Source: Micromonosporaceae bacterium | GTDB lineage: Bacteria; Actinomycetota; Actinomycetes; Mycobacteriales; Micromonosporaceae | DNA length: 64,000 nt | Reading direction: 5' to 3' | Assembly (NCBI GenBank): GCA_039649115.1 | Contig: JBBWZQ010000338.1 | Coordinates: 100-64,099, forward strand | Shown here: positions 21,481 through 39,315 of the stretch, piece by piece | Layout of the letters: each line of letters begins with the position of its first letter | How positions within the stretch are numbered: the stretch's first letter is position 1 | The notes under the pieces: generated by a model | What the model saw: the letters and a program-made list of their open reading frames with translations, nothing else | Database searches by the model: none | What the model was told of the DNA's origin: nothing | Made by a program: the position numbers and the translations under genes

Positions 21481-21520
21481 TTGCTTTAGAAACCCATGGT
21501 AATGTGAGGCCCTCACTCAA
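21481..21520 (+). promoter_or_regulatory. Copy A of the shared AT-rich promoter-like motif, upstream of the C-methyltransferase
   Basis: Sequence TTGCTTTAGAAACCCATGGTAATGTGAGGCCCTCACTCAA. It matches copy B (39276-39315) at 28 of 40 positions. The conserved blocks are TTGCTTTA, ATGGTAA, GTGAG and CCTCA. It contains the pattern TGG-TAAYGT, which resembles an extended -10 (TGn-TAnnnT). Confidence 0.45.
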
Positions 21521-21582
21521 AGGCAGCCGGGCGGACCAGTCGTGTTCCGGTCCGGCGACGCCGCGCGAGGGAGAGGAGTGCC

Positions 21583-22902
21583 GTGGACGTCAGCGACCGC
21601 GCATCCGAGGTGCGCCAATGCCGGGTATGCGGGTCCTCGGACTGGCAGGAGGTCCTCTCGTTCGGGCTCATGCCGTTGGCGAATGACTTCCTGGCACCGG
21701 GAGACTCCGCGCAGGACGAGCCGCAGTATCCCCTCGGTGTCATCTCGTGCCGCTCCTGCCGGTTGATGAGCGTGACTCATGTGGTCGATCCCGAGGTGCT
21801 CTACCGCAGCTACCCGTACGTCACCTCGGACTCGACGACGATGACGCGTCACCTGAACGACGTCGCCCAGATGTGCCGGCGGCGGTTCGGGCTCACCGGA
21901 GACAGCCTGGTCGTCGAGATCGGCAGCAATACCGGCGCACAGCTGATGTTGTTCCGCGACGCCGGTATGCGGGTCTTCGGGATCGACCCCGCCCGCAATC
22001 TCACCGCGGTCGCCCGGCGCAACGGCGTCGATACGCTCGCGGAGTTCTTCTCGCCAGACATCGCCCGGCTGACCGCGCGGACCCACGGCCGGGCCCAGCT
22101 GATCCTGGGCCGCCATGTCTTCGCGCACATCGACGATCTGGCGGGCGTCATCGCCGGCGTGCGCGAGTTGCTCACCCCGGACGGCGTCCTGGTCATTGAG
22201 GTGCCCTACCTGGTGGATCTGCTGGACAAGACCGCCTTCGACACGATCTATCACGAGCACCTGTCACACTTCGCCGTCGGTGCGCTCGTCACCCTGTTCG
22301 AGCGCTACGGGCTCCGCGTGTTCGACGTGCAGCGGATTCCCCTGCACGGCGGCTCGATCCTGGTGTTCGTGGGGCATCCGCCCGGGCCGTGGCAGGTGCG
22401 CCCGTCCGTTCGCGAAGCGCTCATGATGGAGGAGCGCGCCGGGCTGCTCGGCGACGCGGTGTATCACGCGTTCGCGCACAACGTCCGGCGCATCCGGGAG
22501 GAACTGCGCTCCCTCATCCGTCACGTACGGGCCCAGGGCGGGCGCATCGCGGGGTACGGCGCCCCGGCAAAGGGGAACACCATCCTGAACGTGTGCGGAC
22601 TCGGCCCAGCCGAACTGGACTTCTGCAGCGACACCACCGAGCTCAAGCAGGGCAAGCTCCTCCCGGGTACCCACATCCCCGTGCACCCGCCCGGCTATGC
22701 GGTGGCCAATCCACCCGACTACTTCCTGCTGCTCGCGTGGAATTTCGGTGAGGAGATCCTCCGGAAGGAGGCCGAGTTCCTCGATCGGGGCGGCCGGTTC
22801 ATCCTGCCGATCCCGGAGCCTCGCGTCATCTCGGCGGGCTCGCGGGGATCCGCATACCCGGTGGCGCCGTCACCCTTCAGCAGGGTCGTCGCGGGGTCCT
22901 GA
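21583..22902 (+). CDS. NDP-hexose C-methyltransferase (TylCIII / TcaB9-like, Zn-ribbon + class I SAM MTase)
   Basis: 439-aa ORF with the N-terminal CRVCGS...CRSC zinc motif. SAM motif VVEIGSNTG is present, followed by the C-terminal domain typical of sugar C3-methyltransferases. Confidence 0.8.
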   Translation: MDVSDRASEVRQCRVCGSSDWQEVLSFGLMPLANDFLAPGDSAQDEPQYPLGVISCRSCRLMSVTHVVDPEVLYRSYPYVTSDSTTMTRHLNDVAQMCRRRFGLTGDSLVVEIGSNTGAQLMLFRDAGMRVFGIDPARNLTAVARRNGVDTLAEFFSPDIARLTARTHGRAQLILGRHVFAHIDDLAGVIAGVRELLTPDGVLVIEVPYLVDLLDKTAFDTIYHEHLSHFAVGALVTLFERYGLRVFDVQRIPLHGGSILVFVGHPPGPWQVRPSVREALMMEERAGLLGDAVYHAFAHNVRRIREELRSLIRHVRAQGGRIAGYGAPAKGNTILNVCGLGPAELDFCSDTTELKQGKLLPGTHIPVHPPGYAVANPPDYFLLLAWNFGEEILRKEAEFLDRGGRFILPIPEPRVISAGSRGSAYPVAPSPFSRVVAGS

Positions 22903-22913
22903 AAGGCTCTCCG

Positions 22914-37698: not shown

Positions 37699-39206
37699 CG
37701 GCCCACCCTCTCCCGCGCGGTGTCCAGCACCCGGACCCGGCCGAACAGCGCCGCCGGGCAGCCGTGGCTGACCGCGGCCAACTGCCCGGGTTGGCCCTTG
37801 CCGCACATCGACGCTCCGGACAGCAGGTATGTCTGCGGGCCGCCCAGCGCCCGCAGCGAGTTCCAGAACCCGGGCGTCGAGCCCTGGTAGGCCACGTCTC
37901 GTAGCTGACCGGCCAGCCGCCCGTGCCGGATGCGGTAGAAGCGCTGCCCGGTGAACTGGAAGTTGTACCGCTGCATGTCGATCGACCAGCTGTTGTCGCC
38001 GACGACGTAGATGCCGTCGGCCACGTCCCCGATCAGCTCGGCGGTGTCCGGCCCACCCGGCGCCGCGGCCAGCGACACGTTCGCCATGCGCTGCACGGGT
38101 ATGTGCGAGAACGAGTCGGCGTACGCGCAGCCGTTGGAGCGGTCCAGGCCCACCAGCCGCGCCGTCCGGCGGTCGACCTGGTAGCCAACCAGCACGCCGT
38201 CGCGTACCAGGTGCCACGACTGCGCGGCCACACCCTCGTCGTCGTACCCGATGGTGGCCAGGCCGTGCGCCGTGGTGCGGTCCGCCGTCACGTTCATGAC
38301 CGGCGATCCGTACCGCAGCCGGCCGAGCTGGTCGGGGGTGGCGAACGAGGTGCCCGCGTACGCGGCCTCGTAGCCCAGCGCCCGGTCCAGCTCGGTGGCG
38401 TGCCCGATCGACTCGTGGATGGTCAGCCACAGGTTCGTCGGATCGATGACGAGGTCATAGGCGCCCGGCTCGACCGACGGTGCGGCCGCCTTGGCGCGCA
38501 GCTGCTCCGGCAGCGCGTCCAGTTCGCCGGCCCAGTCCCAGCCGGTACCGGTCAGGTACTCCCAGCCGCGCGCGACCGGCGGACCCAGCGTGCGGAGCGT
38601 CTGGAACCCACCCCCCGCCCGGTCCACGCGTACCGCTGTGACCATGGGGTGTACCCAGACCCGGCGCTGCGTGGTGGTGGTACCCGACGAGTCGGCGTAG
38701 AACTTGTCCTCCCGGCTGGCCACCAGCCGGGCCACGACGTGGTCCACGCCGCCGGCCGCCAGCAGCATCCCGCTCCACTCCTGGAGCTTGGCCACCCGCT
38801 CGTCGCCGGGTACCTCCAGCGGGTCGATCAGGTGGTCGGAGCTCCACGTCGCGTCCCGGTACACGGGCTCCGGCGCCAGCTCTACCGGCGTGCCGCGCAG
38901 CGCCCGTACGGCACGGGCCACCGCACATGCCTGACCGGCGACCCGCGCCGCGTCGTCCGGGGTGAGCCCGATCCCGGCGGCGAATCCCCAGACACCGCCG
39001 ACCAGCACGCGTACCCCGAAACCGACCTCGCCGCTGTCATCGCTGCCCTGCAGCCGCCCGTCGCGTACCCGCAGCTCCAGCTGCCGGCGCCGGCCGAGCC
39101 GGAAGTCGGCGTGCCGGGCGCCGCGAGCGGCGGCGCGGTCGATCGCGGCGTCGGCCATGGCCCGTGCCGGCGCCTCGACAGGGACCGTCGCCTGCTCCAC
39201 CGCCAT
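37695..39206 (-). CDS. tldD: TldD-family zinc metalloprotease
   Basis: 503-aa ORF with metal-binding motif HESIGHATELD and the family block GxC...MCGKG near the C-terminus. Confidence 0.85.
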   Translation of the reverse strand: MAVEQATVPVEAPARAMADAAIDRAAARGARHADFRLGRRRQLELRVRDGRLQGSDDSGEVGFGVRVLVGGVWGFAAGIGLTPDDAARVAGQACAVARAVRALRGTPVELAPEPVYRDATWSSDHLIDPLEVPGDERVAKLQEWSGMLLAAGGVDHVVARLVASREDKFYADSSGTTTTQRRVWVHPMVTAVRVDRAGGGFQTLRTLGPPVARGWEYLTGTGWDWAGELDALPEQLRAKAAAPSVEPGAYDLVIDPTNLWLTIHESIGHATELDRALGYEAAYAGTSFATPDQLGRLRYGSPVMNVTADRTTAHGLATIGYDDEGVAAQSWHLVRDGVLVGYQVDRRTARLVGLDRSNGCAYADSFSHIPVQRMANVSLAAAPGGPDTAELIGDVADGIYVVGDNSWSIDMQRYNFQFTGQRFYRIRHGRLAGQLRDVAYQGSTPGFWNSLRALGGPQTYLLSGASMCGKGQPGQLAAVSHGCPAALFGRVRVLDTARERVGR

Positions 39207-39275
39207 GCCCCACCTCCCAAACTCTGCTATCCCTATAGAAAGCTACCAAGCCCCAGTGCGGGCAAGCGTCCTGGT

Positions 39276-39315
39276 TTGCTTTAATAGTATATGGTAACGT
39301 GAGCGCCTCAAGCCA
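39276..39315 (+). promoter_or_regulatory. Copy B of the shared AT-rich promoter-like motif in the tldD / PLP-operon divergent region
   Basis: Sequence TTGCTTTAATAGTATATGGTAACGTGAGCGCCTCAAGCCA, ending 21 nt upstream of the GTG at 39336. See copies A and C. Confidence 0.45.

Follow-up and report, generated by a model that had tools for sequence, protein, structure and literature searches.

The window analysed here, a 64,000-nucleotide stretch of a Micromonosporaceae genome (C119:100-64099, in an assembly of 7.42 Mb, 423 contigs and 72% GC), carries a gene cluster of the 10-membered-enediyne type, in which an AT-rich 22-bp box stands before most transcription units. These boxes are probably the operators of a TnmR1-type repressor with an HxlR and an SCP2 domain (HxlR-SCP2), whose gene belongs to the same cluster (60387-61106). 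Repeated operators of a cluster-situated repressor are an already known kind of element; no description of the operator sequence of HxlR-SCP2 proteins, or of its spread among anthraquinone-fused and calicheamicin/esperamicin-like clusters, was found in the searchable literature.

The original prediction had described three copies of an AT-rich promoter-like motif, A (21481-21520, +) upstream of a sugar C-methyltransferase gene, B (39276-39315, +) upstream of an operon for a pyridoxal-phosphate (PLP) enzyme and SBP5 proteins, and C (24957-24988, -) upstream of an SBP56-like gene. On re-reading, the three sequences are as then given, a recount gives 28 matching positions of 40 for A and B, and the exact 12-mer ATATGGTAACGT common to B and C occurs twice in the genome and no more. 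The string ATGGTAAYGT is found three times in the whole assembly, in A, B and C, and A and B account for two of the three genomic occurrences of TTGCTTTA. The AT-rich motif is real and far rarer than chance allows. Three copies were nevertheless too few, as the window holds about ten and another contig, C369, three more, and copy C, though present, contains the right half of the motif only. The full consensus is TnACTTnAnnAnnATAT(G/A)GTnA, a 22-bp imperfect palindrome (TnACT-N12-AGTnA) with an asymmetric right half, ATAT(G/A)GT.

The weight matrix used in the scans has 27 columns and was trained on 25 sites taken from other genomes and genera only, without Streptomyces sites (consensus GTTACTTTAATAATATATGGTAATCTC, 22 bits in total, with T2, A4, C5, T6, T7, A9, A12, A17, T18, G20 and T21 as the most informative columns). 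When it was run over both strands of the whole genome, all 6 matches of at least 12 bits, 8 of the 9 of at least 9 bits and 11 of the 18 of at least 7 bits fell in C119 or C369, which together account for 1.16% of the genome and 3.3% of its AT-rich 27-mers. C369 (22,193 bp) is a second fragment of the same enediyne cluster. The remaining 7.3 Mb contain one site of at least 9 bits, and 30 column-shuffled matrices placed 0 to 1 of their top nine matches in the two contigs (mean 0.2). All 15 window matches of at least 0 bits are intergenic. In this genome, the 22-base site is almost confined to one enediyne gene cluster; a similar density genome-wide, which would have marked the motif as a generic promoter, was not seen.

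The box is also conserved at orthologous promoters. No orthologue of the PLP gene was found in 60 close relatives; a scan of one genome per species was therefore used instead, and it identified the gene in 29 actinomycetes. In 17 of these 29 other loci, the alignment placed the box just upstream of the PLP orthologue, in the same register and with varying intervening bases (in Micromonospora, Actinoplanes, Winogradskya, Actinomadura, Spirillospora, Jatrophihabitans, Actinophytocola and Haloechinothrix). The motif recurs in 10-membered enediyne clusters of Actinomadura, Amycolatopsis, Micromonospora, Jatrophihabitans and Streptomyces. Four clusters were extended to 60-113 kb, and the box was found before many of their operons, with 17 sites of at least 9 bits in Actinomadura verrucosospora, 21 in Amycolatopsis, 3 in Micromonospora chalcea and 3 in a metagenome-assembled genome of Jatrophihabitans. 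Clusters containing the HxlR gene held 55 sites of at least 9 bits in 569 kb, and no match of at least 7 bits was found in 272 kb comprising seven Streptomyces enediyne polyketide synthase (PKS) cassettes with no HxlR gene within 20 kb. The proposal that one regulator serves both the tailoring genes and the PLP/SBP5 'peptide' module, which would make the two parts of one system, is supported by this distribution, as the motif is cluster-confined, is kept at orthologous promoters, marks most operons of related clusters and tracks the cluster-encoded regulator.

Could the copies be inherited or duplicated AT-rich promoter DNA, or generic AT tracts bound by a nucleoid silencer such as Lsr2, without any shared control by sequence? 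The likeness of A and B (28/40, with GTGAG..CCTCA) exceeds what the family consensus needs and hints at duplication, and AT-rich DNA, which is rare in the genome, is about 3-fold enriched in the cluster contigs. We consider this origin highly improbable, since column-shuffled matrices of the same composition gave no enrichment in the cluster, the G/C positions C5 and G20 are among the most conserved columns, sites before unrelated genes in distant genera keep their register while the intervening bases vary, and the HxlR-less Streptomyces cassettes do hold AT-rich stretches, but no sites.

Six regulators are encoded in the window, namely a SARP-NB-ARC protein, a NarL-type response regulator, an AraC, a MerR, HxlR-SCP2 and a second SARP. 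HxlR-SCP2 is the only one found with counterparts in other clusters (4 of the 4 extended clusters, and 11 of the loci when ±10 kb were inspected). An HxlR-SCP2 orthologue (E-value below 1e-50) is present in 27 of the 29 genomes with a PLP-gene match, as against 3 of 60 relatives without one. The protein (gene on the minus strand; Pfam HxlR 3.7e-14, SCP2 2.7e-7) combines an HxlR winged-helix domain with a C-terminal SCP2 domain, as in the two-domain proteins of the TnmR1/DynU8 type. Across the two domains it shares 48% identity with the regulator encoded in the tiancimycin cluster; the closer homologues present in Micromonospora and Polymorphospora are likewise located in enediyne clusters. Its gene adjoins the enediyne PKS cassette, and its sequence matches in the PDB include YodB (5hs7) and YybR/HypR (4a5m).

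The tiancimycin (tnm) cluster of Streptomyces sp. CB03234 encodes the HxlR-family protein TnmR1 and the UbiB-type kinases TnmR2 and TnmR3; TnmR1 and TnmR3 act negatively, TnmR1 as a repressor together with the kinase TnmR3 (PMC9464397). Homologues of TnmR1 and TnmR3 occur in all five anthraquinone-fused enediyne clusters, those of TnmR1 being DynU8, YpmR1, UcnR1 and SgdU8 (PMC9464397). In electrophoretic mobility shift assays (EMSA) with six promoter fragments, four were shifted by purified TnmR1 and two were not, and tnmD is the gene most repressed, about 700-fold, on TnmR1 overexpression (PMC9464397). The paper gives no TnmR1 binding sequence, and the words motif, consensus and binding site are absent from its text (PMC9464397).

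A search with the window HxlR protein over 401 Streptomyces genomes yielded a locus (G097:C12) in which all 12 published EMSA primers could be found, 11 exactly and one with a single mismatch, and which is therefore the tnm cluster. The matrix separates the four TnmR1-positive probes from the two negative ones. Best scores were 17.6 bits for tnmC-tnmD, 5.7 for tnmR1-tnmJ, 3.3 for tnmB-tnmR3 and 0.3 for tnmT2-tnmS3, which contains a perfect GTCGCT-N12-AGCGAC, versus -8.6 bits for tnmM2-tnmN and -12.3 for tnmI-tnmR1. In the 50-kb tnm region only eight positions reach 0 bits, six of them in positive probes, and the strongest site precedes tnmD, the most TnmR1-repressed gene. The sequences predicted to be protected by TnmR1 are CTCACTTAACTTACAGATAGCGATGTG on tnmC-tnmD and GTCGCTATGCGTTTACGCAGCGAC on tnmT2-tnmS3. 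A seventh position, of 12.5 bits (GTCACTTCAGCAACTGATAGCAATATG, at 29181 of the 50-kb stretch), is found in the tnmE3-tnmI spacer (257 bp), a stretch that PMC9464397 does not name among its six EMSA probes; this position predicts a further TnmR1 target, before the PKS cassette genes.

The box might instead be the operator of another regulator, either the MerR, AraC, SARP or NarL-type protein of the window or a factor encoded elsewhere. Of the candidate binders named in the original prediction (SARP, MerR, AraC and HxlR), HxlR is conserved with the motif and the other three are not. MerR comes to mind because one of the stronger sites, E, stands directly upstream of its gene, and a SARP gene adjoins the HxlR gene both here and in Micromonospora; direct binding by HxlR-SCP2 in this organism is, moreover, something that we infer. 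We nevertheless regard another binder as improbable. Neither the four other motif-rich clusters nor the 29 loci contain counterparts of MerR, AraC, NarL or the large SARP, and SARP2 has one, in Micromonospora. MerR matches were found in 18 of the 29 genomes, mostly elsewhere in the genome, and are absent from Micromonospora genomes with strong sites. SARP sites are direct heptamer repeats with 11-bp spacing that end 8 bp from the -10 element, and MerR operators have their dyad within a 19-20-bp spacer between -35 and -10; the aligned sites show no SARP-type direct repeats, and no -35/-10 pair fits the MerR spacing. Finally, the motif tells TnmR1-positive from TnmR1-negative EMSA probes. A 222-aa and a 246-aa protein beside the Actinomadura PKS cassette were also rejected as alternative regulators, as both are unique to that cluster. 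The conserved proteins u18817 and u20113 were set aside too; they have no family match and are absent from motif-bearing Streptomyces clusters.

The position of the box relative to genes places it at the predicted core promoter. Of 45 sites of at least 10 bits in five clusters, 39 are found at -70 to +300 nt relative to a gene start, and the start codons of the first long open reading frame (ORF) cluster at motif coordinates 27-36, as expected for leaderless genes, and at 55-65. In two species of Amycolatopsis and in Nocardia, a conserved GTG follows TATGCT or TATAGT by 7 nt without a Shine-Dalgarno sequence, which is the usual geometry of leaderless genes. At site B the Shine-Dalgarno sequence occupies motif coordinates 47-54 and leaves no room for a -10 element outside the box, so that the predicted -10 of site B falls within it. 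Taken together, start-codon distances, leaderless genes and the Shine-Dalgarno sequence of site B suggest that the operator overlaps the -10. As for the hexamer itself, TGG does precede TAAYGT (positions 21-26) in A, B and C, but over the 25 sites the A of TAAnnT carries 0.6 bits, against 1.4 for the A and 1.2 for the T of TATnGT five bases upstream; column conservation and the leaderless genes favour TATnGT (positions 16-21) as the -10 candidate over TAAYGT.

With such a location, the motif could in principle be the promoter itself, an extended -10 (TGn-TAnnnT) with an upstream element that is read by a housekeeping or alternative sigma factor and needs no dedicated repressor. TAnnnT hexamers are present inside the motif in two registers, one with the TGG just described, and high-scoring sites face the downstream gene. 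In addition, GTTTGC-N13-GGTAAC at site B loosely resembles promoters of the SigB/F type, for which the consensus is GTTT-N15-GGGTA. The sigma-factor part of the original prediction nonetheless seems very unlikely to us, and the element is better described as a 22-bp pseudo-palindromic repressor operator. General sigma promoters would be expected genome-wide and the matches are confined to the cluster; a sigma factor gene was not found in the window by Pfam annotation of the gene calls; and conservation is strongest in the spacer (ACTT, A9, A12), which sigma does not read. The SigB/F-like promoter was rejected on the same grounds of confinement and spacer conservation. TTGCTT cannot serve as the -35 element, as it lies 13 nt from TAAYGT, which is too close. 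True palindromes with a score on either strand are frequent among the sites (GTCACTTCTATAATCAATAGTGAC and GTTACTCTATGAATATAAAGTAAC are two such cases), and the motif predicts which fragments are shifted by purified HxlR protein without RNA polymerase.

The hairpin between GTGAG and CTCA that had been proposed for A and B can be drawn, but is absent from the minimum-energy folds, and the leaders do not fold better than shuffled sequences (z-scores of -0.2 to -0.3 for the hairpin leaders, and of -0.2 to -1.3 for the leader folds in general). An Rfam scan of the window gave no match, and the features of a riboswitch or structured RNA leader were not found there. A GTGAGG directly follows the box before the PLP gene in several genera (TAACGTGAGC, TAATGTGAGG, TATTGTGAGGG, TAGCGTGAGGGG); it is seen in the window at 39298-39312 and 21503-21516, and also at orthologous promoters of Actinomadura, Spirillospora and Actinosynnema. 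This element is located about at the predicted transcription start, is not accounted for by the palindrome, and forms no significant RNA hairpin.

Several observations fit less well with a HxlR-SCP2 operator. The ACT and AGT arms are separated by 15 bp, a wide gap for a single winged-helix dimer, and characterised operators of the HxlR/DUF24 family are shorter, that of HypR being a 7-2-7 repeat. Orientation toward the downstream gene is consistent for high-scoring sites only. Upstream of the window HxlR gene the spacing is N10 and not N12, and most HxlR orthologues lack a full-strength site before their own gene and have variant ACT-Nx-AGT elements there instead. The EMSA comparison was retrospective and covers six probes, so that the rank separation alone corresponds to p = 1/15, and two positive probes score only 0.3-3.3 bits, a level at which about 32 chance matches per Mb occur in the genome of the window. 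Of these points, the wide spacing of the arms and the low scores of the two probes weigh most.

The individual sites are distributed over the window as follows. Site B (TTTGCTTTAATAGTATATGGTAACGTG, 39275..39301, +, 27.9 bits) is the best match in the genome and ends 35 nt before GTG 39336 of the operon for the class-V PLP enzyme, two SBP5 proteins and a propeller. Back-to-back with it, a weak site (GTAGCTTTCTATAGGGATAGCAGAGTT, 39220..39246, -, 5.4 bits) lies 14 nt upstream of the TldD/PmbA operon start at 39206; a pair of the same arrangement is present in Actinomadura (sites 58642, -, and 58855, +). Site A (GTTGCTTTAGAAACCCATGGTAATGTG, 21480..21506, +, 23.7 bits) ranks second in the genome and is upstream of the sugar C-methyltransferase gene (21583-22902; Pfam Methyltransf_14/13). 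The third best match, site D (GTCACTTCAAACTCAGATAGTAAGATG, 16813..16839, +, 17.9 bits), ends 56 nt upstream of ATG 16895 of the gene for a 641-aa membrane protein, in the frame indicated by the GC3 (third-codon-position GC) plot. A longer ORF from GTG 16787 (16787-18820) crosses site D; ATG 16895, with GGAG upstream, is the likely start. The 641-aa protein is rich in Ala and Gly, has no Pfam or NCBIfam match, and has one homologue among the related loci (Amycolatopsis, 40%).

Site E (TCTACTATAAAAACATATAGCGCTCTG, 49054..49080, -, 13.8 bits), the genome's fifth best, is followed by a Shine-Dalgarno sequence and GTG 49033 of the MerR-family gene. A weak site at 49274..49300 (-, 5.8 bits) stands between this gene and the divergent DUF1702 gene (start at 49287), with which the enediyne PKS cassette starts. 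Site C (24956..24982, -, 12.1 bits) keeps the right half with its -10-like part, and its left half departs from the consensus in the alignment; it is located about 215 nt upstream of the SBP56-like gene (22963-24741). The gap between site C and the start codon (24742-24955, -) is far above the distance at other sites (mostly 1-100 nt), and may reflect a long leader, an incorrectly placed start codon of the SBP56-like gene or a small ORF that escaped annotation. The region shared by the divergent SBP56 and P450 genes also contains a weak palindromic candidate (GCTATGTGTTACGATAGC, 25063..25089, -), about 70 nt ahead of the P450 start (25158); it scores 2.0 bits, a score for which about two chance matches per 64 kb are expected.

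A site that matches on both strands (GTGACTAAAGTATCGTATAGCGATCGT, 35039..35065, -, 8.1 bits) occupies the divergent region between an operon for 2-oxoglutarate (2OG)-oxygenase-like and luciferase-like proteins (-) and a glycosyltransferase gene (35110, +). Another (TCAACTTGAGATACCAATGGTTTCGCC, 45940..45966, -, 8.0 bits) is 14 nt upstream of ATG 45925 of the homocysteine S-methyltransferase gene. The last one in the window is a variant (61117..61143, +, 8.2 bits) before the HxlR-SCP2 gene; on the strand of that gene it reads GTGACTGCTATGTAATAGTTAAGGGAT and includes the palindrome CTATGTAATAG. It is a probable autoregulatory operator, and a related element, ACTGCTATGnnATAGT, is found upstream of the Micromonospora HxlR-SCP2 orthologue. 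On C369, the matrix matches are at 7820 (-), 11067 (-) and 19773/19776.

We propose that HxlR-SCP2 represses the cluster by steric hindrance. The right half of the box would lie over the -10 hexamer of each target promoter, and because of this overlap a bound winged-helix dimer would block RNA polymerase. Predicted targets are the genes for the C-methyltransferase, the SBP56-like protein, TldD/PmbA, the homocysteine methyltransferase and the membrane protein, the PLP/SBP5 operon, the 2OG-oxygenase/glycosyltransferase pair, the MerR gene and the gene of HxlR-SCP2 itself, and on C369 those for an epoxide hydrolase and a conserved 401-aa protein. Repression, rather than activation, is the sign of regulation that we infer for this organism, and derepression would presumably occur via a signal in the SCP2 pocket or the N-terminal Cys, and/or via the two UbiB-type kinases of C369. 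A Cys in the sequence QxCGLA, just before the first winged-helix helix, is kept in at least 90% of 29 HxlR-SCP2 orthologues. YodB, HypR and HxlR carry their sensing cysteine at that N-terminal position, and the conserved Cys hints at thiol-based sensing besides the SCP2 pocket.

The gene content agrees with a 10-membered-enediyne-type cluster, according to gene calls from the GC3 plot and families assigned by Pfam. The enediyne PKS (PKSE) cassette (49287-59154) consists of DUF1702, UnbV, an NQR2/RnfD-like protein and a 1911-aa KS-AT-ACP-KR-DH synthase. Tailoring genes encode the sugar C-methyltransferase, a glycosyltransferase, a P450 and several methyltransferases, and a sulfur/'peptide' module comprises the SBP56-like propeller, TldD/PmbA and the class-V PLP enzyme followed by two SBP5 proteins; a homocysteine S-methyltransferase is encoded in addition. 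The cluster matches that of Actinomadura verrucosospora, an esperamicin producer, and would accordingly be of the calicheamicin/esperamicin-like kind decorated with sugar and sulfur. Tandem DUF1702 pairs beside UnbV/PKSE were seen in Streptomyces loci of genomes G404, G210 and G415 (L137-L140, L145-L146), and genomes G106 and G142 have four DUF1702 genes at places where a PKSE is lacking within 20 kb, so that the family is not limited to one copy per enediyne cassette.

C369 contributes two UbiB/ABC1-type kinases (9115-10587, -, and 11142-12578, +), which are homologues of TnmR2 and TnmR3 and show 41-47% identity to the products of two kinase genes of the tnm region; the tnmB-tnmR3 probe is adjacent to one of these two genes. 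It further encodes a cystathionine-gamma-synthase-like enzyme, a carboxymuconolactone-decarboxylase-like protein, an SBP5 protein, a PRMT-like methyltransferase, an epoxide hydrolase, a P450 and the 401-aa protein (C369:19881-21086). In a comparison of clusters from Actinomadura, Jatrophihabitans, Micromonospora and Amycolatopsis, a protein of about 400 aa was the most conserved one, with 72-82% identity among three other clusters, and the C369 copy is a clear homologue by eye. A motif site precedes the gene both here and in Actinomadura verrucosospora (G072:C32:1353-2666).

A broader hypothesis, which we put forward as tentative and rather less likely than not to hold in full, is that the 22-bp box is the universal operator of an HxlR-SCP2/UbiB-kinase checkpoint that gates 10-membered enediyne biosynthesis across actinomycetes. 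The SCP2 pocket would then read a hydrophobic molecule of the pathway, for instance an intermediate of the polyene or enediyne-core type or the end product, or alternatively the conserved Cys would read a thiol-reactive species, and the genes for sugar, sulfur and resistance functions would stay off until production of the warhead is under way. If this were true, the regulon and the limits of every such cluster could be predicted from the consensus by itself, even where the cluster is in fragments, as with C119 plus C369.

Enediynes such as calicheamicin are used as warheads of antibody-drug conjugates, and many enediyne clusters give little or no product in culture. The HxlR repressor of tiancimycin is known genetically; with a defined operator, the regulon would become readable from sequence. 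In the present genome the motif joins the sugar-tailoring genes, the sulfur/'peptide' module, TldD/PmbA and C369 as one co-regulated system, and it predicts that the HxlR-SCP2 gene at the window edge is a functional part of the cluster. It is also a possible means to delimit 10-membered enediyne clusters in draft genomes and offers concrete sites for footprinting.

One of the known systems closest to the present case is TnmR1/TnmR3. The regulators have the same two-domain build, with the identity of 48% extending over both domains, are encoded beside the enediyne PKS cassette, have partner kinases (here on C369) and target many promoters within one cluster, and the window motif scores the fragments bound by TnmR1 and not the unbound ones. 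They differ in that the tnm cluster is anthraquinone-fused and the window cluster sugar- and sulfur-decorated, so that the target genes are not those of tnm, and in that the window sites have a higher AT content and higher scores (up to 28 bits) than the majority of tnm sites.

A second group for comparison are the MarR/DUF24 (HxlR-family) regulators with known operators, to which YodB and QsrR belong. HypR of Bacillus subtilis binds a 7-2-7 repeat, GTATCAAAATTGATAC (PMC3351151). Regulators of the HypR type share with the window protein the winged-helix fold of one Pfam family, AT-rich inverted repeats and an N-terminal Cys. The window operator, however, bears no sequence relation to theirs and is longer, at 22 bp with a distance of 15 bp between the arms, and the window protein has an extra lipid-binding SCP2 domain. 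HypR is an activator bound at -53 to -95, whereas the window sites overlap the predicted -10.

In overall logic, the boxes also resemble the AT-rich ARE boxes that are bound by TetR/ArpA-type receptors before most operons of Streptomyces biosynthetic clusters. In both cases, a palindromic AT-rich operator is repeated at many promoters of one cluster in a GC-rich genome, overlaps the core promoter, here by prediction, and is served by a cluster-encoded repressor, predicted here to be ligand-responsive as well. What sets the HxlR-SCP2 system apart is its protein family, its operator sequence and its additional kinase partners.

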